From: a virus
Taxonomy: Duplodnaviria; Heunggongvirae; Uroviricota; Caudoviricetes
DNA: 9,491 bases
Strand: one strand, 5' to 3'
Virus record (IMG/VR): IMGVR_UViG_2547132272_000017
Location: 1 to 9,491 of that record
Each line of letters begins with the position of its first letter. The first letter of the stretch is position 1. Below the pieces are notes generated by a model, which was not told the origin of the DNA, did not search any database, and saw nothing but the letters and a program-made list of their open reading frames with translations. Shown piece by piece: positions 1 through 9,491 of the stretch. The position numbers and the translations under genes were made by a program.

Positions 1-91
1 ACTCTCCAGGAAACCCGGGGCGGTTCAGTTGTTCCGCCTGTCGCAACATTTCCTGTGCCTGTTTACGTAATTGTTCAGGGGTAAAAGTCAT
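1..91 (-). CDS. Partial ORF (N-terminus only; continues past the left window edge), hypothetical protein
   Basis: ATG at 91..89 on the minus strand, 11 nt after the helicase stop (TGA, 105..103). Reverse complement of 1-91 is open and reads MTFTPEQLRKQAQEMLRQAEQLNRPGFPGE. No clear Shine-Dalgarno; only 30 codons visible. Confidence 0.25.
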   Translation of the reverse strand, partial: MTFTPEQLRKQAQEMLRQAEQLNRPGFPGE

Positions 92-102
92 TGTCTGGTT
101 GT

Positions 103-1494
103 TCAAAAGAAACGCTCCATCTTACTGCTGTCAGTTCGTTTGTTGCTGTATCTGCGCGGCTGAGGCTGCTGCATTGGGGTGGAAAGAATCTGTGCGCTTT
201 CCTGATCCACAGGCAGAAAATGTCCGTTATAAAAACGCCGATAAATCGTCCCCAGAGAACCGTTACGTTGTTTCGTGATATTGATTTCTGCGATGCCCCT
301 GGCCTGCGTATCCGGGTTGTACACTTCATCCCTGTAAAGCATCAGAATGATGTCTGCATCCGCCTCTATTTCTCCGGAATTTTTCAGGTCTGAGTTCATG
401 GGGCGTTTATTGGGCCTGGACTCCACACCGCGGGAGAGCTGACTCAGCGCAATCAACGGAAAACCACCGGATTTTGCCAGGCCTTTAAGCCCCTTTGAGA
501 TTTCACCAACGGCAAGGTCATGACGCCCTGTGGTTCGGGTTTTTATCAGCCCGAGATAATCAACCACCACCAGCGCCGTTTCCGGATGTTTAATCAGGTG
601 ATGTTTCGTTGTTGCGCATATCTCATCAATGGTCAGGTTCGCCTGGTCCACCATCCAGATATTGCGCCCGGTCATCCGCCCCACTCCTTGTGAGAAACGT
701 GCCCAGTCTTCGTCTTCAAAGTGAGTGACAGATTTCAGGCGTGATACCGGCATTCCTCCAGCCGCAGATACCATGCGTTCACCAATCTGGATGTTCGCCA
801 TTTCCATTGTGAACAGAAGAACACCATGCCCCTGCTCAGTCACCTTGTCGATGATATCCAGCGCCAGTTCGGTTTTGCCCATCGAAGGACGTGCAGCAAT
901 AAATACCAGGTCGCCAGGCTCCATGCCGCCCGTTTTTGCGTCCAGTTCATCAATACCGGTCATCAACGTCCTGGATTTCTCCAGCCCCTGATTCCGGCAT
1001 TCAACACGCTCAACCACTTCCGGAAGCACATCATCAATATGTACCGGCTGAATAACGCCCTTTTCCGTCGACAATGAGGCCATCATGTTCTGCGCATCCT
1101 TCAGAGCATCTTCAGCTGCTTCACAGGTATGCGCATCACGTAATTTCTGCAGCGCCTCATTCAGTGTTTTTTCTGCATCACGCAATGCGGCATTACGCCG
1201 CAACGCCGTAACATAGTGCTCCAGTGACGACTTCACCCAGGTTTTGCGCCCGGTATCAGTAATCACCGGGGCAAGTTCCGGCATCTCATTACACAACAGC
1301 ACAGGGTCAATCACGCCGGACACACGGGCCTGTCTGCAGATGCCTGTGTAGATATCCCGGTACGGTCGTACAGAAAAAACGTCCGCCGGTAGTGTGGCCA
1401 GAATATCCATCACTTCAGGATCTGCCCCTCGCAGAAAAAACGCGCCAATGACAGCGCCTTCCAGGTCATCGTTACGCCAGACAGGAGAAGTCAT
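103..1494 (-). CDS. DnaB-family replicative DNA helicase (phage-encoded)
   Basis: Long ORF with Walker A motif (ARPSMGKTELALD) and overall DnaB-like RecA-fold layout. Start placed at the ATG at 1494 (MTSPVWRND...), preceded by GGAGG and overlapping the upstream gene's stop as ATGA. The ORF track's start at 1533 is a TTG without an RBS. Confidence 0.85.
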   Translation of the reverse strand: MTSPVWRNDDLEGAVIGAFFLRGADPEVMDILATLPADVFSVRPYRDIYTGICRQARVSGVIDPVLLCNEMPELAPVITDTGRKTWVKSSLEHYVTALRRNAALRDAEKTLNEALQKLRDAHTCEAAEDALKDAQNMMASLSTEKGVIQPVHIDDVLPEVVERVECRNQGLEKSRTLMTGIDELDAKTGGMEPGDLVFIAARPSMGKTELALDIIDKVTEQGHGVLLFTMEMANIQIGERMVSAAGGMPVSRLKSVTHFEDEDWARFSQGVGRMTGRNIWMVDQANLTIDEICATTKHHLIKHPETALVVVDYLGLIKTRTTGRHDLAVGEISKGLKGLAKSGGFPLIALSQLSRGVESRPNKRPMNSDLKNSGEIEADADIILMLYRDEVYNPDTQARGIAEINITKQRNGSLGTIYRRFYNGHFLPVDQESAQILSTPMQQPQPRRYSNKRTDSSKMERFF

Positions 1495-2381
1495 GCTGCC
1501 ACACCTCCGATATGTGCACGGTAACTTTCCCAACCAAACACCAGGCAGTTACGCCCACCATCAGTAACGCGATCCACAATCCGTTCACCAATGGACTCCT
1601 TAAGTTGGTCAAATGTCAGATTACTAATCAAAATTGTCGGTAAAACGCTTTCGTAACGTGCATTGATGATTTCCTGCAGGATGGTTATCTCTGTTGGCGT
1701 ACCGAACTGCACACCAACCTCATCGATGATGAGCAGGTCCAGCGATACAAAATGGTCAATAACTTCATCTTCAGTGCGTTCAGAATTGTGACGCCAGGTA
1801 TTTTTCACAGCGCGGGTCAGTCGCATGACATCCGTAATTTCGACAGTCGCCAGGTGGTGGCGAATAATATTTTTTGCCATTGATACAGCCAGGTGATTTT
1901 TCCCGGTACCGCAATTGCCAATCATGATCATGCTGGTACCCGCAGCAAGACACTTCTCCCATGAACTGGCATAGCGCCGACAAGCCTCAAGATTTCTCTG
2001 TGCGTCAGCATTCACAGCCTGGTAGTTCTCAAACTCGCAGTCCTGGAAGCGGCGGGCAATACCAGCTCTGTCAAGTAATTCATGAACTTTCAGGATGCGT
2101 AACGCCTCCTGTACCTGATCCAGTTCATTCGCAATGCAGGTCGGGCAACCAGACACCCGTTTGATGGTTTCCCCACGAACATCTGGCCCTTTCAACACCA
2201 GACGTGTGTATTTCCCGTGTTTCTCACACTCAGCAGTTTCCTCGCTTGTCAGCCAGTGTTCACAGCGCCACGGACGCTTCCCGGCACGGGCAAACTGCAT
2301 CTCCTCCTCCAGTTCCGCCCTGCGGTTGAGCAATTGCGCTTTATCGTGTTGTGCGTAGTGTTTTTTTAACTGTTCAAACAT
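1491..2381 (-). CDS. DnaC/IstB-like AAA+ ATPase, putative helicase loader / replication protein
   Basis: Walker A (GNCGTGKNHLA) and Walker B (LLIIDEVG) motifs. Cys-rich N-terminal region (RCEHW, ECEKHG, GCPTC). SD GAGGTGA 7 nt upstream of the ATG at 2381. Stop overlaps the helicase start (ATGA). Confidence 0.8.
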   Translation of the reverse strand: MFEQLKKHYAQHDKAQLLNRRAELEEEMQFARAGKRPWRCEHWLTSEETAECEKHGKYTRLVLKGPDVRGETIKRVSGCPTCIANELDQVQEALRILKVHELLDRAGIARRFQDCEFENYQAVNADAQRNLEACRRYASSWEKCLAAGTSMIMIGNCGTGKNHLAVSMAKNIIRHHLATVEITDVMRLTRAVKNTWRHNSERTEDEVIDHFVSLDLLIIDEVGVQFGTPTEITILQEIINARYESVLPTILISNLTFDQLKESIGERIVDRVTDGGRNCLVFGWESYRAHIGGVAA

Positions 2382-2400
2382 TGTTCATCACCTCGAAAAA

Positions 2401-3378
2401 TCACCAGTTGAAGTTCGTTGAACCGTAGTCCTGCTCACTGAATCCCGAGATCGGGAGGCCGGTAGTTCGCCCACCTCCGGGAGCGGCTGGCTGTTGCCAG
2501 GATTCCTCGAAATGGCGATCGGGTCCAAAGAACGTCGCGGCCTGCTTCACGAACTGTGTGCCTGTATTTCCTGTAGCACGTACCCAGGCGGCATACCGCT
2601 TCACACCATCAAGCATGGTCTCCGGTTTTATTCCCTCCCTGATACGGGCTTTCCAGGCTTTGAAGGCTGCTGACTTGGAATTGCCACCAGCACGTTTGGG
2701 ATATTCCTGCCAGGCCTGTTCAAATTCCGGTGAATATTCCTGTCGGGCAGAACGCGCTGGTGCAGACGCGTCAGCGGATGCGCCAATAGTGTTTTTAGTC
2801 TCCGTTGTAATCTCTGTAGTAATCTCTGTATTTGTATCAACATTCGGCGTATCCCCTGTTCCGTTATGACGTTGGGGGGTGTTCCGTTTTAACGTAATAG
2901 CTGTATCGCTGATTGCGTTATTGCTGTTACTTTCTGGCGAAACAGAAGAAGGAGTAGTAATGGCAGCAATTGCCTGTGGGTTGATCCCGACAAACAAAAT
3001 ATTGCTGCATTTCACACCATCGAGCATTTCCACCGTGCGTAAATCCAGGGAAATAAACCCGGCATCACGAAGGCGCTTCAACGCATCCGCGGTTTCCCTT
3101 TTCCCGAAACCAAACTGCTCAGCAAACGCCTGATAACTTCTTTGCAGCTTGTCCCCCTGAAAACGCTTGCGATATCCCAGCAAAGCCCCGGTATGCTCAT
3201 CCCTGACTTCTGTCGGGCGGTACCAGTAAACGATCTCTGAGAGCAGGGCGATAGCGGTCGCATCCGGACGACCACTGGGTAGCCGAATATGTTTCCACCA
3301 GTTCGCTGGTGTGACATTGCCGGAAATATTAATTTGACCAATAGCTATAACTTCCGGTGTGGGGGCGTAACGACTCAT
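2401..3378 (-). CDS. Phage replication initiation / replisome-organiser protein (O-like)
   Basis: 325-aa ORF immediately upstream of the DnaC-like and DnaB-like genes, with a strong SD (AAGGAGG). N-terminal region resembles phage replisome-organiser proteins; a low-complexity linker (TEITTEITTE) separates it from a C-terminal domain. Assignment rests on position and architecture, not on a searched match. Confidence 0.6.
   Translation of the reverse strand: MSRYAPTPEVIAIGQINISGNVTPANWWKHIRLPSGRPDATAIALLSEIVYWYRPTEVRDEHTGALLGYRKRFQGDKLQRSYQAFAEQFGFGKRETADALKRLRDAGFISLDLRTVEMLDGVKCSNILFVGINPQAIAAITTPSSVSPESNSNNAISDTAITLKRNTPQRHNGTGDTPNVDTNTEITTEITTETKNTIGASADASAPARSARQEYSPEFEQAWQEYPKRAGGNSKSAAFKAWKARIREGIKPETMLDGVKRYAAWVRATGNTGTQFVKQAATFFGPDRHFEESWQQPAAPGGGRTTGLPISGFSEQDYGSTNFNW
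2807..2830. repeat. Perfect tandem 12-bp direct repeat (gtaatctctgta x2) inside the O-like gene
   Basis: Read directly: 2807-2818 and 2819-2830 are identical, followed by a partial third unit (tttgta). Encodes the TEITTEIT linker on the minus strand. Confidence 0.7.
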
Positions 3379-3674
3379 ACAGCCTCCTTACGCGGCATAA
3401 CAATGGTGTAACCCCGGGCAGGCTGGAGCCGGGCTTTTGCATCAATAGTGAGCGTTGCAATTTTTCGGATACGCAGATACCCTGCCCTTTCCAGGGTCAG
3501 GGTTTCTCTGAACATTGCCTGTTTTGAACAGCAACAAAAATCGGCAAGGACCTGGTGATCAATAACCCTCTCACCTTCACCGTCTGAAGAACCCGACATC
3601 AAAACACGCAACATAATCAGGCGCTGAATCGGATTATCGAAAACACTTCCGCATACAAACTGAAAACAGTTCAC
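3375..3674 (-). CDS. Hypothetical protein (99 aa, GTG start)
   Basis: GTG start at 3674 preceded by GGGAGG at good spacing. Start overlaps the upstream stop (GTGA) and the stop overlaps the O-like start (ATGA). The C-terminal half (QVLADFCCCSKQAMFRETLTLERAGYLRIRK) may be a winged-helix-like segment; this is unverified. Confidence 0.5.
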   Translation of the reverse strand: MNCFQFVCGSVFDNPIQRLIMLRVLMSGSSDGEGERVIDHQVLADFCCCSKQAMFRETLTLERAGYLRIRKIATLTIDAKARLQPARGYTIVMPRKEAV

Positions 3675-3895
3675 ACGGCACCTCCCAGGCGTTTAAACAT
3701 TTTTCCGGACTGAAACGCCACCAGTGGGTAACTGATGGTGTAGTTACGCCCCAGTAATTCACACACGACTTTCTGGCTTTCGGTACTGACCAGGCAAACC
3801 CGCAGAACATGGCCGTTGCTGGTGGCAAACCACTGCCCCACACGGGGGCAACGGTTGTATCGGTGATACAGGGAATTAACGACGCGGCGAATCAT
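3671..3895 (-). CDS. Hypothetical protein (74 aa; alternative start at 3910 would give 79 aa)
   Basis: ATG at 3895 overlaps the stop of the upstream 220-aa gene (ATGA), indicating translational coupling. No recognisable domain. Confidence 0.45.
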   Translation of the reverse strand: MIRRVVNSLYHRYNRCPRVGQWFATSNGHVLRVCLVSTESQKVVCELLGRNYTISYPLVAFQSGKMFKRLGGAV

Positions 3896-4554
3896 GGGCG
3901 CACTTCCCATTGATTACGGCGGAAAGCAGTGTGATTCAGGCTGGTTTCAGCCTCATGGAATGCTTCAATGCAGCTCTCGTAGTACCGCATTGTGCGCAGA
4001 CTTAACCCAAGCTGAAGCATCATCAGACCATCAAGGGTGATGTAATAACCACGCAGGGAATCGCCATACACGTGGTAAGTACCCGGAATGAAATTACGGG
4101 AGAAGAATTCACGTGAGCAGTTCAGATACTCGATTTTGTCGACGATGTTCTGGTGCATGCGCTTAAAGTGGCAGGCAACATGCAGGGAGAAAATAACAGC
4201 TTTGCCGTTGACGACTTCGATTTTCAGGTATGGGGAAGTTGGGACTGTAGCCATGATGGCAGCCTCCGTATGCAATGGATAACTTCCACCACCGGAAACG
4301 CCAATTTCACTGGTGGTGAACTGAACGGGGTTGGCGTAACCGGCGCATACGGAAACCGGCGCATCTTTCGATGCCCCCGCCCAGCCCACCATAATCTGGA
4401 TGTGAGCAAATGCGGACGATAAAAAAGACGCTGGCGCGTCGTATATCGCCGTATGCAATTCCAGGACGCCAATCCCGGCACCCGCTTTATAAGGTGCCAG
4501 AACAGTGTAACGTCCCGAAATTGCAGAATCAATATTTAGGCTTGAAACATTCAT
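3892..4554 (-). CDS. Hypothetical protein (220 aa)
   Basis: Longest ORF in this interval, on the same strand as the flanking operon; ORFs in other frames are shorter shadows. No clear SD upstream of the ATG at 4554 and no recognised motif. Confidence 0.55.
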   Translation of the reverse strand: MNVSSLNIDSAISGRYTVLAPYKAGAGIGVLELHTAIYDAPASFLSSAFAHIQIMVGWAGASKDAPVSVCAGYANPVQFTTSEIGVSGGGSYPLHTEAAIMATVPTSPYLKIEVVNGKAVIFSLHVACHFKRMHQNIVDKIEYLNCSREFFSRNFIPGTYHVYGDSLRGYYITLDGLMMLQLGLSLRTMRYYESCIEAFHEAETSLNHTAFRRNQWEVRP

Positions 4555-4631
4555 ATGCTTACTGGTATTTTTGTTGACGTTCTTGGATTCTTGGGCCTGC
4601 TTTATGCAGTTGCCTGTATCAACGTTGAGCG

Positions 4632-4657
4632 AGCCGGGTTACTACCCGGCTTTTTTT
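4632..4657 (+). terminator. Intrinsic terminator-type hairpin (8-bp GC-rich stem AGCCGGGT/ACCCGGCT, 4-nt loop) followed by T7 on the + strand
   Basis: Read directly: stem 4632-4639 / 4644-4651, T-run 4651-4657. Canonical for + strand transcription; on the minus strand it sits immediately after the Rha stop codon, preceded by an A-tract with no U-tract after it. Confidence 0.6.
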
Positions 4658-5388
4658 CACCGCTGCCAACCAATAACCTGAAATAACCCCATTTTCGGGT
4701 GATACCAGCGAGTCCCTCGCGGTTCTGCTTCCTCCATAACCCGATAAAAAGCAGCCATAAACGGTTCCACAGCAACAATTGCGCGACGTGACAACAATCC
4801 GTCCGGCGTCATGAACTCATGGGTGTCTGTAGGAATTTGATAGGCGTTCACCAGATTGCGGCATTTATCATCTGACAAACCGGTTTTTGCTTTCAGTTGG
4901 CGATATCCGGCATAGCCCTCACGAATGGTGCCCTTTTTGATTTGCTCAACTGTTTCGGCAACATGGCTGACTTTTTCTTCCACCTGAGTGATCCGTTTCT
5001 GCTGGCGAACAGCTTCAAGAGCCATCGCTGCAACCATTTCGATTTCGCTCATTGGCTTACGGATCTGTTCTTCCAGTTCGCGCCAGCGATCTACCAGGCG
5101 AGCAGTGAATTCAGGACAGAGCTGTGCGACGACAATGATGCTGTCGCGCTTACCTTGTTCTCCTTCAAACAGGTAATGCTCATATTGAACTTTAAAACCT
5201 AAGTTATTGATTCTTTCGGAAACCTCAATTTGAGGAGACCGGACAACGCCACCTTTGGCTAATGTTTCAATAGTGCGTTTCACATTGTCATGACGTTTAC
5301 CCACCAGCTCTGCGATTTCAACGCTGGTCATGGATACTTTGTCGTTAAAAATTGCAGCGTTCATTGTTGCCTCTTTACGAAAAACCAT
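4657..5388 (-). CDS. rha: Rha-family phage regulatory protein
   Basis: N-terminal signature SMTSVEIAELVGKRHDNVKRTIETL is typical of the Rha domain. Two candidate in-frame starts, ATG 5388 (SD AGAGG) and ATG 5364 (SD AAAGAGG); the longer is annotated. Confidence 0.8.
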   Translation of the reverse strand: MVFRKEATMNAAIFNDKVSMTSVEIAELVGKRHDNVKRTIETLAKGGVVRSPQIEVSERINNLGFKVQYEHYLFEGEQGKRDSIIVVAQLCPEFTARLVDRWRELEEQIRKPMSEIEMVAAMALEAVRQQKRITQVEEKVSHVAETVEQIKKGTIREGYAGYRQLKAKTGLSDDKCRNLVNAYQIPTDTHEFMTPDGLLSRRAIVAVEPFMAAFYRVMEEAEPRGTRWYHPKMGLFQVIGWQR

Positions 5389-5433
5389 GATTAACCTCTA
5401 GCTTTCCCCGTCTTTTCCGCACTTCTTGTACGG

Positions 5434-5442
5434 TGATATTAT
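5434..5442 (+). promoter_or_regulatory. Extended -10-like element TGaTATTAT, candidate promoter for the + strand gene at 5536
   Basis: Sequence TGATATTAT sits about 95 nt upstream of the ATG at 5536. The -35 is weak (tttccg). It lies in the 147-bp divergent spacer between the Rha start and the + strand gene. Confidence 0.3.
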
Positions 5443-5535
5443 TCAGTGCCGGATGCTTACCCGTGTCCGGCGCACGACCACACGTAGCCGCGTGTTGGTC
5501 TCCATTTTCAATTCAGCTCTCAATGGAGGATAAAA

Positions 5536-5781
5536 ATGTCAAATACCCAACATCTAAAAGCGGCGGATCCCGTTTTACGCCTCAATGCACTTGAAACGGT
5601 TGTTCGGGCGATGCTGTCGAGCATGACACCCGAGCAAATAAACAAAGCGCGATTGATTGCTACTCGTGGTGCCCAATTAGCAGCCCTAGATCCATTGCTC
5701 ACTCCTGCGAATCGCGAAGATGTAGAGCACATTCAGGGGATGGTTGATTATTTATTCGCCCATATTCCTGATCAGATTTGA
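5536..5781 (+). CDS. Hypothetical protein (81 aa), convergent with cro, inside the rightward early region
   Basis: Strong SD GGAGGA 5 nt before the ATG at 5536. Protein-like composition (MSNTQHLKAADPVLRLNALETVVRAML...). A hairpin plus T-rich tract lies downstream. The antisense ORF 5520..5732 has biased Ser/Ala/Arg content typical of a shadow frame. Confidence 0.55.
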   Translation: MSNTQHLKAADPVLRLNALETVVRAMLSSMTPEQINKARLIATRGAQLAALDPLLTPANREDVEHIQGMVDYLFAHIPDQI

Positions 5782-5813
5782 TTCTTTGAACCATAATTTC
5801 AGCGATACGAATG

Positions 5814-5844
5814 GCCGCCGCTTCGAGCCTGGCGGCTTCTTTAT
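5814..5844 (+). terminator. Hairpin (GCCGCC / GGCGGC stem, 11-nt loop) followed by TTCTTTAT, between convergent genes
   Basis: Stem 5814-5819 / 5831-5836 read directly, T-rich tract 5837-5844. Lies 33 nt after the + gene stop and 27 nt after the cro stop on the other strand. Confidence 0.4.
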
Positions 5845-5862
5845 CTGCATAAGAGCTACCCA

Positions 5863-6108
5863 TCACTTCTCGTCCTCTGTGTGCGCTAAGCTTGGGTGTG
5901 GAAAAAGCTCTGGTAGGTCTGGACGAAATTCATACGCTTGGATCTTTCCGTCGACAGCTGCAACCAATAACGGCACAAATTCTGGTGAAATCTTGTTCTT
6001 GCAGTTCAACCAATCGCAGACTGTTGACTGGGCCTTTCCGCATCGCTTGGCTAAGGCTTGCTGACTTCCAAGAATCTCAATAGCTTTCTCTATGGCTTTA
6101 TGTTTCAT
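5863..6108 (-). CDS. cro: Cro-like HTH regulator (YdaS-type)
   Basis: Divergent from the cI-like gene across the operator region. Pattern AIEKAIEILGSQQALAKRCGKAQSTVCDWL...EFRPD matches the YdaS/Cro-like HTH family. Start set at ATG 6108 (MKHKAIEK...) with SD AGGAGA; the ORF track's longer start lacks an RBS. Confidence 0.75.
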   Translation of the reverse strand: MKHKAIEKAIEILGSQQALAKRCGKAQSTVCDWLNCKNKISPEFVPLLVAAVDGKIQAYEFRPDLPELFPHPSLAHTEDEK

Positions 6109-6227
6109 AATCGCATCTCCTATTGAACGCATAATAACAACAGGAAAAGCGATATTCAACGTTAAACCTAGAACATTTATCGGAAAGCCGATAGACTAGC
6201 CAGGATAGAGAGGGGAGGAAAATCGCA
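6109..6227. promoter_or_regulatory. Divergent control region (OR analogue) between cro and cI, with operator-like sites
   Basis: 119-bp spacer between the divergent HTH genes. Contains the palindrome TATCGGAAAGCCGATA (6178-6193) and weaker related copies at 6109-6124 and 6139-6154 (core ATCG-N6-CGAT). Confidence 0.7.
6131..6159 (-). promoter_or_regulatory. PR-like sigma70 promoter for cro (-35 TTGAAT, 17-bp spacer, -10 TATTAT, minus strand)
   Basis: Minus-strand reading: -35 is the complement of 6154-6159, -10 the complement of 6131-6136. This leaves a leader of about 16 nt carrying the cro SD. Confidence 0.5.
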
Positions 6228-6920
6228 ATGACATTTTCAGAACGACTTGATTTAGCTATGCGCAACGCAAAATTTACGCAAGGTAGGCTGGCCAAAGAAG
6301 TGGGTATGGCTCAGTCCAGTGTCAATCAACTACTTAACAAAGCCAACGGTTCCAGAAAAACAGTCGAAATAGCAAAAGTTTTGGGCGTTAACCCGGAATG
6401 GCTCGCATCGGGTGTTGGCCCAATGGAAATCGTGACCTCTGCAGACTCACACCAAATACGTAACATTTCTGAAGATTGGGTTACTGATTCGTATGTCGTG
6501 GATGTTTTAGACATCAGATATAGTTGCGGACCTGGTAGTTATAACTCTGATTTTCCTGACATTGTCAGATCTATAGCGATAGAACCAGGATACGCATCAA
6601 GAGTTTTTGGCGGCAGGCCAGCATCAGCAATCAAAGCAATAAACGCCCACGGCGACAGTATGAAAGGCACAATAGACCCTGAAGACTTGGTATTTGTAGA
6701 TGTATCAGTTCGCACATTTAATGGTGATGGTATATACGCCTTTACATACTCTGGAACATCGCACATCAAAAGACTTCAAAAAATCAAAGATACTCTAACG
6801 GTGATATCTGACAACCCAGCTTACAAGGATTGGGCTATCGAACCGGAAGACTTCGAACAACTTCACATTGACGGAAAAGTAATTGTCAGTTGGCCCATGA
6901 CACTACACCGTTTTGCATAA
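6228..6920 (+). CDS. cI: CI-like prophage repressor: N-terminal HTH plus C-terminal LexA/S24-type autopeptidase
   Basis: HTH (FTQGRLAKEVGMAQSSVNQLL); S24 motifs GDSM with a Lys about 38 residues downstream (HIKRL); possible Ala-Gly-type cleavage region (LASGVG). SD GGAGG 10 nt upstream of the ATG. Confidence 0.9.
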   Translation: MTFSERLDLAMRNAKFTQGRLAKEVGMAQSSVNQLLNKANGSRKTVEIAKVLGVNPEWLASGVGPMEIVTSADSHQIRNISEDWVTDSYVVDVLDIRYSCGPGSYNSDFPDIVRSIAIEPGYASRVFGGRPASAIKAINAHGDSMKGTIDPEDLVFVDVSVRTFNGDGIYAFTYSGTSHIKRLQKIKDTLTVISDNPAYKDWAIEPEDFEQLHIDGKVIVSWPMTLHRFA

Positions 6921-6938
6921 GCAAAAATCATTTAACCC

Positions 6939-6964
6939 GCCCACTCTTAAGTGGGCTTTTTTTT
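6939..6964 (+). terminator. Rho-independent terminator after cI (stem GCCCACT / AGTGGGC, loop CTTA, T8)
   Basis: Read directly: stem 6939-6945 / 6950-6956, T-run 6957-6964, 19 nt after the cI stop. Confidence 0.8.
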
Positions 6965-6971
6965 GGAAAAA

Positions 6972-7012
6972 AATCGATAAACCGATTGACAGACAAAATC
7001 GGCAAACCTATT
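6972..7012. promoter_or_regulatory. Two operator-like sites (OL analogue) overlapping the PL-like promoter
   Basis: AATCGATAAACCGATT (6972-6987, overlaps the -35) and AATCGGCAAACCTATT (6997-7012, overlaps the -10) share the core ATCG-N6-C(G/T)AT with the OR palindrome. Centre-to-centre spacing is 25 bp. Confidence 0.55.
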
Positions 7013-7014
7013 AT
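6986..7014 (+). promoter_or_regulatory. Near-consensus sigma70 promoter (TTGACA, 17 bp, TATTAT): PL analogue
   Basis: -35 TTGACA at 6986-6991, 17-bp spacer, -10 TATTAT at 7009-7014; about 50 nt upstream of the ATG at 7064. Confidence 0.7.
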
Positions 7015-7063
7015 CATGGCATAGGTATCGAACTCACCAAAGCAATTATAGAGGATGAGAAAA

Positions 7064-7561
7064 ATGTCATCGTATATGGGGTTACCAACAAATCAGCACG
7101 ATGCTCTTGAGAATATTCAACTCTTAGTAGGGGCTGGTGCACTACTGTATAGCAGCAATAATCCTGAGTTAATTGAACTTGCCAGCTCCATCCTGGCTGT
7201 AACTCAAAAATACAGCCTCACCGCGTCGCGTTTATGCAAACAAAATTTAGCTATTAATTCCCAGAATCGGATTCGCACCCAACGCGAAGCCTGCGGCTTA
7301 ACAACCGCCGAACTCGCCAGGCTGCTCGATCTCGATGAAGAAATTATCATCCAGTGGGAGAGCGGAGAGTATGAACCAACTATCAGTATGCTTATCCCAC
7401 TGGCAAATATTCTTGGCTGCGATCCGATGTGGCTGTTAACTGGCGAAGTTACTCCTCCGGAGCAACCAAAAAGTGAGGAGCAGCAACACCATGACGCATC
7501 TCAACAAGTTTGCTCCTTATCTCGCGAAGCTCTTCTACGGAAGAACCAATACCAATGGTGA
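7064..7561 (+). CDS. XRE-family HTH protein with an uncharacterised N-terminal region (166 aa); first gene of the leftward operon
   Basis: SD GAGGA 8 nt before the ATG at 7064. HTH_XRE signature in the C-terminal half (IRTQREACGLTTAELARLLDLDEEIIIQWESGEYEPTISMLIPLANILG). No Arg-rich N-type motif. Confidence 0.7.
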   Translation: MSSYMGLPTNQHDALENIQLLVGAGALLYSSNNPELIELASSILAVTQKYSLTASRLCKQNLAINSQNRIRTQREACGLTTAELARLLDLDEEIIIQWESGEYEPTISMLIPLANILGCDPMWLLTGEVTPPEQPKSEEQQHHDASQQVCSLSREALLRKNQYQW

Positions 7562-7689
7562 CATAATCGCCGCTTCGCCCCTCAAGGTACATGCGAACAT
7601 TTTTATCAATCATTGCGGAAACAGTCTCAATATGAAAACACTTCTGAGACTCGCTATATAGCAGAACATATAAGTCAGCTGAGGAAGCC

Positions 7690-8055
7690 ATGAAAAAGTT
7701 CGAAAACATAACTGTTCTCCATGTTGATGACTTTGATTATACAAACCCGGAACCTCTCCCGGAGGTTGTAAAGGCAATAGATGTTGCCGATATAGTGATT
7801 AGAGGAAAGAGAATTGTCAAAAACAGGCTCGCATGCACTTCAGGAGCAATGACAAAAACAACCTCACAACAAGATGATTATGAAGGCATTTGTCTGGAGC
7901 CGGACTCATTTGCGGTAAATGTTTATCATTTATTGCATGCAACACAGGTATTACATATGTCCAGTAATCACGAAACAAAAACACTTGGCAGCGAAATTCT
8001 GAATTTTGCATGTGAATATGCAAAAGCTGCTGCCGAAAAAGAATTAGCGCAATAA
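7690..8055 (+). CDS. Hypothetical protein (121 aa)
   Basis: ATG at 7690 preceded by GAGGA. AT-rich codon usage matching the neighbouring + strand genes. No recognised motif. Confidence 0.6.
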   Translation: MKKFENITVLHVDDFDYTNPEPLPEVVKAIDVADIVIRGKRIVKNRLACTSGAMTKTTSQQDDYEGICLEPDSFAVNVYHLLHATQVLHMSSNHETKTLGSEILNFACEYAKAAAEKELAQ

Positions 8056-8253
8056 CAACAAATATGCCATGAACGTTTATTACGGTTTTATCGCCGGGGA
8101 TTGTTGCAACCTTTATTCATAGAGGTAACTCAGTTATGACTTTCCTGAAAAATAAGGCATCGTATAAAACTGCCTGCCTCATTGCACAACATGGAGATTC
8201 TTATCTTCATATAGCCAACCTGTATTTGCGCAAAGCATATGGGAGATAAATAA

Positions 8254-8442
8254 ATGAAAGAAAAACAACAGAACATAACACATGAAAAAGTAAGAGTGTT
8301 GTTGACCATTGAAAATGGGAAAGTGATTTACTCAAAACATCTGTCGGATGATGAATTCGTTGGCTGCATGGATACATTTCTGTGGATGGTAAAAAGAGCG
8401 GGTTACACGATTATTCCACCAGCAAAGGAACAAACATTATGA
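8254..8442 (+). CDS. Hypothetical small protein (62 aa), translationally coupled to the downstream gene
   Basis: SD GGGAGA 7 nt before the ATG at 8254. Stop TGA overlaps the next ATG (ATGA at 8439-8442). Confidence 0.55.
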   Translation: MKEKQQNITHEKVRVLLTIENGKVIYSKHLSDDEFVGCMDTFLWMVKRAGYTIIPPAKEQTL

Positions 8443-9020
8443 ATTATTCAGAGTTCCGACCAGAAGTTACGCCACATGGCATAAAAATTGGCAATACAAC
8501 CATTGATTATGTTGAGGCCGTACAGCGACTTAATGATGGTGAATACGATTATCCAAACTCACACGGTTTAAGAATCATGCAATGTATTGCTGAAGCCGAT
8601 GATGCAGGGTTGCTGGGACGATTTTCAGTCGATATGAAAGTTGCTCAATGGCGATGGCTGTATGTGACTACGTTTATAAATGAAGAGAAAGACAAGAACG
8701 GTACCGTTGATATCCCTAACGATAATGGAACTACAGATCGCGCAGTTATTTACAAGGGGAAACATGGTTGCCTGAGTATCTACCCCGGACCACTTCGCAT
8801 TGCCCTGCAAAACCATGTCGAATGGGGATTTATTGAAAAATATGGCGAAGCTGAAGGCATGGGGCGAGTTCTGTTTCTCTATCAAAAAATGCTCATCGCA
8901 GATCCTGATAATGGTTTCATTATCTCTGCTATGGGGCGCGAAGGGCTTGAACTCCTTCTGGATGAAATGATTCACGATCTGAATACTCATGGTATGCCAG
9001 AAGCGCCAGTGACACATTAA
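8439..9020 (+). CDS. Hypothetical protein (193 aa)
   Basis: ATG at 8439 with SD AAGGAA 8 nt upstream and ATGA overlap with the 62-aa gene. The ORF track's longer form starts at a GTG (8382) with no RBS. Soluble-looking, no recognised catalytic motif. Confidence 0.65.
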   Translation: MNYSEFRPEVTPHGIKIGNTTIDYVEAVQRLNDGEYDYPNSHGLRIMQCIAEADDAGLLGRFSVDMKVAQWRWLYVTTFINEEKDKNGTVDIPNDNGTTDRAVIYKGKHGCLSIYPGPLRIALQNHVEWGFIEKYGEAEGMGRVLFLYQKMLIADPDNGFIISAMGREGLELLLDEMIHDLNTHGMPEAPVTH

Positions 9021-9027
9021 ATATTAA

Positions 9028-9052
9028 GAAGAATATAATTCTTCCGTTTTTT
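9028..9052 (+). terminator. Candidate intrinsic terminator (AT-rich 7-bp stem GAAGAAT / ATTCTTC, loop ATA, T6)
   Basis: Read directly, 8 nt after the stop of the 193-aa gene. The stem is weak (two G-C pairs), so efficiency is uncertain. Confidence 0.45.
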
Positions 9053-9065
9053 ACTAACCGTTTAT

Positions 9066-9173
9066 ATGAAAAGCAACCGTGAATTAAGCAGAGTAAAACT
9101 GATTTTAATCCTTGCCACAGTGCTGACACTAACTGAAATCATTATTCTCTTTATTGCGCTGTCAGTCGGTTAA
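9066..9173 (+). CDS. Candidate small hydrophobic peptide (35 aa, single predicted transmembrane helix)
   Basis: ATG at 9066; MKSNRELSRVK followed by a hydrophobic stretch (LILILATVLTLTEIIILFIALSV). No SD; below the ORF-track size cutoff. Confidence 0.25.
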   Translation: MKSNRELSRVKLILILATVLTLTEIIILFIALSVG

Positions 9174-9196
9174 AAATATCGGGATACCACAGACCA

Positions 9197-9385
9197 ATGA
9201 GACTGTATTTCACAATAGTAATTTTACTGGCAATTATCGCATGCATTTACGGATTACTCGTTCCGTTCCTTATATCCATGAAGGATACGATAGCAGTTAT
9301 TTCTGGCTTTGCACTGGCGTTTCTGACCCCGCCCTGCATTTATGCCATTTACAAGGGTCTTTCTTTCACTAAGGATAAAAGATGA
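9197..9385 (+). CDS. Small membrane protein (62 aa, two predicted transmembrane segments, charged C-terminus)
   Basis: Hydrophobic segments FTIVILLAIIACIYGLLVPFLI and IAVISGFALAFLTPPCIYAIY. Weak SD. Stop overlaps the next ATG (ATGA). Confidence 0.5.
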   Translation: MRLYFTIVILLAIIACIYGLLVPFLISMKDTIAVISGFALAFLTPPCIYAIYKGLSFTKDKR

Positions 9386-9477
9386 AAAAAATTATTTTTG
9401 CTTTAGCCATTGTTCTGCCGACTATTGGCCTTGTCGGTTGCGATCGCGTTGAACCAGGTAATGGCTTTGTTGAATAA
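9382..9477 (+). CDS. Tiny putative lipoprotein precursor (31 aa; signal peptide plus lipobox LVGC)
   Basis: SD AAGGA 6 nt before the ATG at 9382. MKKIIFALAIVLPTIGLVG|CDRVEPGNGFVE: n-region, h-region and lipobox Cys at residue 20. ATGA-coupled to the upstream membrane-protein ORF. Confidence 0.4.
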   Translation: MKKIIFALAIVLPTIGLVGCDRVEPGNGFVE

Positions 9478-9491
9478 ATCGAACTTTTGCT

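Follow-up and report, generated by a model that had tools for sequence, protein, structure and literature searches.

A candidate antisense small RNA between an antirepressor-like gene and an IsrK/C4 locus in phiP27-like and Stx2-converting prophages

The 9,491-nt stretch of DNA analysed here (positions 1 to 9,491 of the IMG/VR virus record IMGVR_UViG_2547132272_000017, hereafter the window) corresponds to the immunity and early-right part of a lambdoid, phiP27-like Escherichia coli prophage in reverse orientation. It contains, between two minus-strand reading frames of antirepressor type, a 115-base spacer with the features of a plus-strand small RNA (sRNA) gene, which is the subject of this report. 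A BLAST search with positions 3800-5500 finds DNA of 88-96% identity in Shiga toxin (Stx)-converting phages, in phiP27 and in approximately 1,670 E. coli records. We established the gene order from RefSeq neighbours and Pfam matches. On the minus strand, the early operon runs from a pR-like promoter through a cro-like helix-turn-helix (HTH) gene, an open reading frame (ORF) of 70 amino acids (aa) and a 243-aa antirepressor-like ant/rha gene, the product of which RefSeq names 'Rha family transcriptional regulator', and then reaches the spacer. Beyond the spacer follow a 220-aa ORF (3892-4554), two small ORFs, an O-like HTH gene for replication (2401-3378, 1.2 kb past the candidate sRNA) and DnaC-like and DnaB-like genes. 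The terminator scan finds no minus-strand intrinsic terminator between pR and the spacer and hence pR transcripts should reach it. The coordinates of the main features are collected in Table 1.

The spacer ends in a strong plus-strand intrinsic terminator, as a sequence-only reading of the window had proposed for positions 4632-4657. The stem consists of nine pairs, six of them G-C, around the loop TACT, and the T7 run overlaps the stem end. Of all terminator-like sites of the window this one ranks first; it is also the sole inverted repeat within 4440-4680 and, folded alone, reaches -16.7 kcal/mol (z = -5.1), a value equalled by none of 200 shuffles. Its T-run overlaps the TGA stop codon of the 243-aa ant/rha gene, the last T being the first base of TCA, the complement of that stop. 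Seen from the minus strand, the order is TGA, A7, hairpin and CUCGCUCAACG, with CTCGCTCAACG on the 3' side of the hairpin. Because A7 precedes the hairpin and no U-tract follows it on the minus strand, the terminator works on the plus strand only, and the scan calls no minus-strand terminator at 4631-4657. The same reading had found no plus-strand gene upstream that the terminator could serve, and we agree: the plus-strand ORFs 4410-4577, 4153-4422, 4088-4282 and 4555-4686 have no Pfam or PHROG match.

The promoter-like pair TTGAAA and TATTTT, which had been pointed out 60 nt upstream of the terminator, is present with its 18-nt spacing, and a TG one base before the second hexamer completes an extended -10 element. 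Altogether 9 of 12 consensus positions are matched, and the proven lambda promoter pO obtains an equal score in the identical scan, also with 9/12 plus TG. By a rough estimate, the chance that a given terminator has a right-strand promoter match 40-120 nt upstream is 5%. The nearest other plus-strand promoter-like site upstream is at 1840-1868, with none within about 2.6 kb of the terminator, and the scan finds the candidate promoter again in the Stx2 phage ASU11.

Initiation at A4577 or G4579, the start suggested by the position of the -10 element, and an end within the T-run would yield the RNA listed in Table 1. A transcript of about 80 nt had been put forward earlier; the conserved features described below are best read as such a plus-strand unit, and both of its ends are predicted. 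The predicted RNA folds with -31.6 kcal/mol (z = -4.1). It would begin with, or within a few bases of, a conserved 10-mer, continue through a central hairpin and finish with the terminator hairpin.

Table 1. Positions of the candidate sRNA unit and of neighbouring features in the window.
Feature	Position	Strand	Basis
-35 hexamer TTGAAA	4542-4547	+	promoter scan
Extended -10 element: TG 4563-4564, one base, TATTTT 4566-4571	4563-4571	+	promoter scan
Predicted small RNA, ~79 nt (77-81)	~4577/4579 to ~4657	+	inferred from promoter and terminator
Conserved 5' 10-mer GTTCTTGGAT, possible seed or 5'-end element	4579-4588	+	identical in three haplotypes
Central hairpin	4593-4615	+	-10.3 kcal/mol, z = -2.7
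Intrinsic terminator	stem 4631-4652, T7 4651-4657	+	scan, folding, inverted-repeat search
243-aa Rha/Ant-type antirepressor-like gene	4657-5388	-	Pfam Phage_pRha; phrog_63 'anti-repressor Ant', E = 1.8e-48
Probable isrK promoter: TTGATT 4532-4527, 17 nt, TACACT 4509-4504	4504-4532	-	read from sequence
IsrK-type sRNA	4497-4421	-	Rfam RF01394, 61.8 bits (gathering 50)
IsrK own terminator	4440-4421	-	terminator scan
C4-type antisense RNA (P1/P7 c4, P4 CI, STnc1160 class)	4396-4309	-	RF01695, 80.5 bits (gathering 45), full-length
C4 target b2 overlapping GGAGG Shine-Dalgarno, then 120-aa Rha-domain coding sequence	3892-4275	-	Pfam, PHROG
pR-like promoter	6159-6131	-	promoter scan
CI/LexA-type repressor	6228-6920	+	

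Of 5,426 complete E. coli genomes, 237 contain the 141-nt spacer, in each case between a Rha gene and an ORF annotated as 'ash', and it is also present in nine deposited phage records. Seven of these are named Stx2-converting phages, and the others include ASU11, which was induced with mitomycin and carries stx2 genes. A further 90 IMG/VR and 36 metagenome contigs came from pattern scans, which brought no additional haplotype; flank-anchored scans of contigs from viruses and metagenomes returned only the same three haplotypes plus the phiP27 allele described below. With a strict pattern and one genome per species, a single chance match was obtained, in a Chthoniobacterales metagenome-assembled genome and without the T-run. 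The three spacer haplotypes are 74-83% identical and differ by indels (measured against that of the window, the other two reach about 82% and 74%), and the genes flanking the spacer are 88-93% identical.

All haplotypes keep the same set of elements: CTTGAAA; TGnTATnTT, read as TATTTT or TATCTT; the 10-mer GTTCTTGGAT; GTTGAG, one base and GAGCCGGG...CCCGGC; and then T6-8 directly before the TCA of the stop codon. The -35 hexamer is invariant among the three (TTGGAA occurs in 1 of 102 instances), and haplotype 3 reads TGATATCTT in the -10 region, where TG and TAT..T are retained while the spacer between the hexamers is only about half conserved. The two promoter alleles agree at 13 of the 14 positions of the hexamers and TG, vs 8 of the 16 remaining spacer positions. 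In every listed instance across 131 spacer sequences, the T-run has a length of 6-8. The 10-mer is kept although its flanks differ and carry indels, and single variants of it occur (GGCT in L113 and GTTGTTGG in L147). Between the 10-mer and the terminator, the segment varies in sequence and length, and each haplotype has a stable hairpin there: those of haplotypes 2 and 3 differ in sequence from that of the window, lie in the same place and fold with -10.0 and -11.8 kcal/mol (z = -3.9 and -3.6). We folded the central hairpins per haplotype, since their geometries differ and do not align; RNAalifold reports three pairs changed on both sides. The other two haplotypes predict RNAs of 84-85 nt with identical architecture. 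Promoter elements, hairpins and T-run thus persist across diverged haplotypes, which argues that they are more than chance, and the conserved features fit a real plus-strand sRNA of about 79-85 nt, the transcription of which is predicted.

The alternative of a protein product fits less well. The ORF at 4555-4686 could encode a hydrophobic 43-aa peptide or a type I toxin, and we rejected it: its ATG is ATA in haplotypes 2 and 3, where the frame also shifts, it has no family match and the terminator lies inside it. Across the three haplotypes, neither strand of the spacer has a conserved ORF.

In phiP27 the homology ends on one side right after the isrK -35 element and on the other about ten bases inside the 3' end of rha, and as far as the alignments go the spacer is a discrete mosaic unit. 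The phiP27 slot holds an ant gene (L15) instead. On its plus strand (L002 6535-6631) we found GCTTGATT, 18 nt and TGATATTGT within the first ant codons, followed about 55 nt downstream by the hairpin GGCCGGT..GCCGGCC and a T-rich tail that abuts the rha stop codon. This candidate unit is non-homologous to that of the window and unannotated in the record. Its RNA would cover the ribosome-binding site (RBS) and GTG start of ant and the unit is therefore likened to sar of P22. Apart from the promoter hexamers, which have the same offsets in both, the two alleles have no sequence in common. Both occupants of the slot thus carry a convergent promoter-terminator unit, from which we argue that antisense transcription at this place is selected, although the phiP27 allele itself shows almost no variation by which to judge this.

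A simpler explanation would be an insulator, that is, a terminator that blocks plus-strand transcription into ant/rha, cro and cI, next to an incidental promoter with a functionless product. The position of the terminator exactly at the gene boundary in both window-type and phiP27-type alleles would suit it, as would a promoter match of only 9/12. However, the -35, TG and -10 elements are conserved across diverged promoter alleles, a backstop needs neither a conserved 10-mer nor an internal hairpin kept in three sequences, and within about 2.6 kb upstream there is no other plus-strand promoter-like site to guard against. We therefore regard an insulator as rather improbable.

On the other side of the spacer, the 220-aa ORF had been taken as a gene whose mRNA leader the sRNA would complement. 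This was a misreading: an IsrK/C4 locus lies there, and a Rha coding sequence probably starts at 4254. Within the first 100 codons of this ORF, Rfam places an IsrK-type sRNA and a full-length C4-type antisense RNA on the minus strand, with a weak match to the C4 a1b1 target model (RF03163) at 4510-4458. In the 220-aa ORF, the Pfam domain Phage_ASH (residues 16-108) covers the same DNA as IsrK and C4, and Phage_pRha follows at residues 123-203. The C4 loop target TTGCATACGG occurs twice (0.02 expected by chance), once as b1 within IsrK (4458-4449) and once as b2 (4275-4266) over the GGAGG that lies 8 nt before ATG 4254 (Shine-Dalgarno and ATG span 4268-4252). The 120-aa product from this ATG matches Phage_pRha with 30.7 against a cut-off of 29.9 and phrog_995 at 8e-58. 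An excess of substitutions at the third codon position begins only in its coding sequence, and the real Rha-type coding sequence probably starts here. The IsrK match begins at 4497, 7 nt after TACACT, a spacing that fits the probable isrK promoter; this promoter is conserved in all contexts, phiP27 included, and IsrK/C4 is probably transcribed from it, judging from the sequence. An isrK promoter of its own has been shown experimentally in Gifsy-1 (PMC4825925).

The isrK promoter and that of the candidate sRNA stand back-to-back, with their -35 elements 9 bp apart. Because the isrK promoter points away, the candidate sRNA does not overlap the IsrK/C4 transcript, and because the two diverge, it can pair only with pR read-through transcripts. 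A transcript from pR would meet no intrinsic terminator before that of IsrK (4421-4440), which precedes the replication genes, and IsrK/C4 may therefore gate those genes, as the CI RNA does in P4.

In L009 (E. coli ETEC4090) an insertion sequence element (integrase core domain protein, about 940-1000) has replaced the isrK side and reaches to a few bases from the sRNA -35; the sRNA unit and the rha gene are intact. In prophages L016 (three copies), L007, L057, L067 and L110-L112 the isrK-C4-rha2 module is repeated in tandem, in two or three copies whose target loops have diverged, and the candidate sRNA precedes the first module only.

The part of the frame called ash behaves differently from the Rha coding sequence. 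Among 67 distinct variants of 73-92% identity, substitution rates at the three codon positions are 0.12/0.11/0.11 in the ash part and 0.145/0.116/0.23 in the Rha coding sequence; given the flat rates, the ash part evolves as RNA and not as protein. The ash frame is open in 67/67 variants; among 244 distinct substitutions, about eight that create a stop would be expected. The single indel preserves the frame. An in-frame ATG (4554 in the window) precedes it in four different upstream contexts (L002, L104, L108 and others), in three of which it overlaps the end of the preceding gene as ATGA; one context has a GGAGG Shine-Dalgarno sequence, and the ATG of the window has none. In Gifsy-1, orf45 over a C4-like RNA is translated and coupled to anrP (PMC4825925); its equivalent here begins with the M at 4393 and continues in frame into the Rha domain. 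By analogy with orf45, there may be selection for ribosomes to pass through isrK/C4 on read-through transcripts, and the Phage_ASH 'ash family protein' looks, from these patterns, like a translated RNA locus.

Towards the other end of the immunity region, a strong plus-strand terminator (GCCCACTCTTAAGTGGGC followed by T8, 6939-6964) lies directly 3' of the cI-like gene, and a weak Rfam match to Trp_leader near it is merely this terminator. The best promoter match of the window (TTGACA, 17 nt, TATTAT; 11/12) follows at 6986-7014 on the plus strand before an HTH gene (7055-7561) and is probably the pL-like leftward promoter.

The sequence-only reading had compared the unit with lambda OOP, and the comparison holds for layout, size and terminator; it fails for homology, for the extent of overlap with the upstream gene and for the neighbours. 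Like the 77-nt OOP, the RNA of about 79 nt predicted here would be antisense to the pR operon and lie upstream of the replication genes, with a 9/12 promoter that has an extended -10 element and straddles the ATG of the downstream ORF (here 4554) and with a strong intrinsic terminator at the 3' end of the upstream regulatory gene. However, oop covers 55 nt of cII, whereas the overlap here is at most 3 nt, in the stop codon only; and oop lies between cII and O, whereas this unit lies between ant/rha and the IsrK/C4-rha2 module. Local alignment with oop gives a score reached by 64 of 500 shuffles, blastn-short of the lambda pO-oop region against the whole window gives chance-level matches only, and no oop copy was found elsewhere in the window. 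Rfam has no oop family, and lambda itself gives no match.

The unit resembles P22 sar in being a small antisense RNA in an antirepressor operon, convergent with the operon promoter, with its own promoter in or at the start of the downstream gene and its end just after the upstream gene. The difference is that sar covers the ant RBS, whereas the sRNA of the window would start about 23 nt upstream of ATG 4554 and cover no RBS; the Rfam sar model has no match at E up to 10 in the window or the 161-nt region. The immediate neighbour belongs to the IsrK/C4/P4 CI class (P1-P7 immI, isrK-orf45-anrP of Gifsy-1), which acts in antirepressor control, and is organised as in P1 and Gifsy-1, with the b1 target, C4 and then b2 over the RBS (PMC4825925). 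The candidate sRNA differs from this class by its strand, being upstream of and divergent from the isrK promoter; RF01394, RF01695 and RF03163 give minus-strand matches only and none to it. No such partner RNA is described for Gifsy-1, in which antQ lies upstream (PMC4825925). A further likeness is to the Hfq-bound sRNAs of enterohaemorrhagic E. coli (EHEC) prophages (the 'anti-sRNAs' AsxR and AgvB, HnrS and StxS), which are 50-80 nt long, have their own promoter and terminator and sit at mosaic or convergent positions; these lie in the late or moron region downstream of PR' (PMC4104026, PMC13502914, PMC7547250). Rfam AgvB and other families do not match the candidate sRNA, and the Rfam search of the plus-strand element yields only sub-threshold matches driven by the terminator. 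The candidate has no homology to known RNA families, and by this comparison it would be an undescribed small antisense RNA of the temperate-phage early/immunity region, neither OOP, sar, IsrK nor C4. Nor did we find a description of it in a 2025 phage-sRNA review or in the papers on IsrK, on EHEC Hfq-CLIP and on HnrS, and a full-text literature search for the 10-mer finds unrelated primers only.

We favour the reading that the spacer at 4540-4657 is a small mosaic module encoding one plus-strand non-coding RNA that most likely acts in cis, as lambda OOP does, and we give it a probability of roughly 0.45. The analysis shows the sequence elements, how they are conserved, what the neighbouring features are and that known RNA families lack homology to the unit; we infer that the promoter fires, where exactly the RNA begins and ends, and each step of the following mechanism. 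A sigma-70 extended -10 promoter (4542-4571) would start the RNA at about 4577-4579, and the RNA would end at the ant/rha stop. It would pair perfectly with the 80-nt stretch of pR read-through transcripts (the ant/rha 3' untranslated region) between the ant/rha stop and IsrK/C4, and RNase III would be able to cleave such a duplex. For OOP, it is established that the upstream message is destabilised in an RNase III-dependent manner (PMC12197685). Cleavage would remove the protective 3' hairpin of the ant/rha message and uncouple the upstream genes from the IsrK/C4 gate and the replication genes. Interference may come in addition from convergent transcription and from the closeness of the isrK promoter. 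Overall, one would expect less antirepressor and less pR read-through to the IsrK/C4 gate and the replication genes, which would favour the establishment or maintenance of lysogeny.

Several observations weigh against this reading. As a match taken alone, the promoter is at chance level: the window holds 11 promoter-like matches vs 14.2 expected from shuffles, and as such matches are as frequent in shuffled sequence, the candidate promoter is weak on its own. There are only three haplotypes and two promoter alleles, so that the comparative evidence comes from few independent lineages. Pairing in cis does not explain an invariant 10-mer and pre-terminator block while the middle drifts. The sRNA covers no coding region or RBS, unlike OOP or sar, and the pay-off of pairing is less obvious. 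No description of the element was found in the searchable literature or Rfam. Finally, of the changes in the central stem, two (G-to-A, haplotype 3) suit the minus strand and one (A-to-G) the plus strand. The terminator variants, by contrast, speak for the reading: the loop-closing pair T-A is C-G in strain WAT, a compensatory change, and a C-to-T stem variant (L105) leaves a U.G pair on the plus strand only. As the central-stem changes point both ways, the wobble variants do not fix the strand, and the strand assignment made here from sequence rests on the promoter and the T-run.

The features of the spacer might instead serve the minus-strand pR transcript, as a stabiliser or processing site at the ant/rha 3' end or as an ash leader, or the DNA itself, as a recombination junction or a site for protein binding at the isrK promoter. 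The two haplotype-3 stem variants, wobble-compatible on the minus strand only, would agree with this, and the minus strand folds too (-38.6 kcal/mol, z = -3.2); ATG 4554 is in frame in four upstream contexts, and the conserved blocks border recombination junctions. However, A7 before the hairpin has no known role on that strand, yet its length is maintained, and no U-tract follows; in phiP27 and in the tandem copies the isrK promoter works although the sequence upstream of it is unrelated; ATG 4554 lacks a Shine-Dalgarno sequence here; and the spacer has no operator-like palindrome. An operator was among the candidates we discarded: the terminator is the only inverted repeat, and the palindromic TCAACGTTGA (4619-4628) is lost in haplotype 3. 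The spacer and the cI-cro region share no motif. A minus-strand terminator or a nut/put-like role was likewise dropped, for want of a U-tract and of any supporting match. Overall, we see little likelihood in a minus-strand or DNA-level role.

The conserved 10-mer bears on a further possibility, a trans-acting prophage sRNA of the Hfq type, in which the predicted conserved single-stranded 5' end GUUCUUGGAU would be a seed for a host or phage mRNA or sRNA and the antisense position would be a matter of chance. Such RNAs typically show the architecture seen here, with an invariant 5' end, a variable middle hairpin and a GC-rich terminator with at least 6-7 U; the 10-mer and U6-8 agree with the seed and U-tail expected of Hfq-dependent sRNAs, which on sequence grounds is suggestive only. 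Conservation of the 10-mer is also unneeded for pairing in cis, and EHEC prophages carry many short Hfq-bound sRNAs at mosaic junctions (PMC4104026, PMC13502914). However, a search for the complement of the 10-mer (ATCCAAGAAC, one mismatch allowed) found no other site, either in the window or in the 44-kb phage ASU11, a U-rich Hfq site is missing between the two hairpins, and the best duplexes in the window, at -43 kcal/mol, are barely better than those of shuffled sRNAs, which reach down to -40.9. These duplexes, with minus-strand segments of the dnaB-like (1312-1351) and O-like (2527-2566) genes that resemble the complement of the central hairpin (ACAGGCA.CTGCA...AGGCCC), are probably chance. 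Hence, we consider a trans-acting sRNA unlikely, and retain the cis-acting antisense RNA as the preferred reading.

A more speculative extension, which we hold to be quite unlikely, makes the sRNA the third RNA of an immI-like gate. On pR read-through transcripts, ribosomes starting at ATG 4554 would translate across the IsrK terminator and C4, and such translation would override termination and C4 control and let transcription continue into rha2 and the replication genes. The sRNA would decide whether the gate opens, through pairing upstream of ATG 4554 and competition with the isrK promoter, and/or its 5' seed would act on a host gene in trans. If this were true, the sRNA would help to set the induction threshold of Stx-type phages.

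Thousands of 'ash family protein' (Phage_ASH) calls in E. coli prophages coincide with the IsrK and C4 locus, and the annotation therefore hides an RNA switch under a protein name. If the spacer next to this locus is transcribed, phiP27-like and Stx2-converting phages would have a regulatory RNA in their lysis-lysogeny control region that is so far undescribed. In Salmonella, an antirepressor switch of the IsrK/C4 type controls induction of the prophage Gifsy-1 (PMC4825925). As the candidate sRNA sits between the antirepressor gene and such a switch, it could influence the induction of Shiga-toxin phages.

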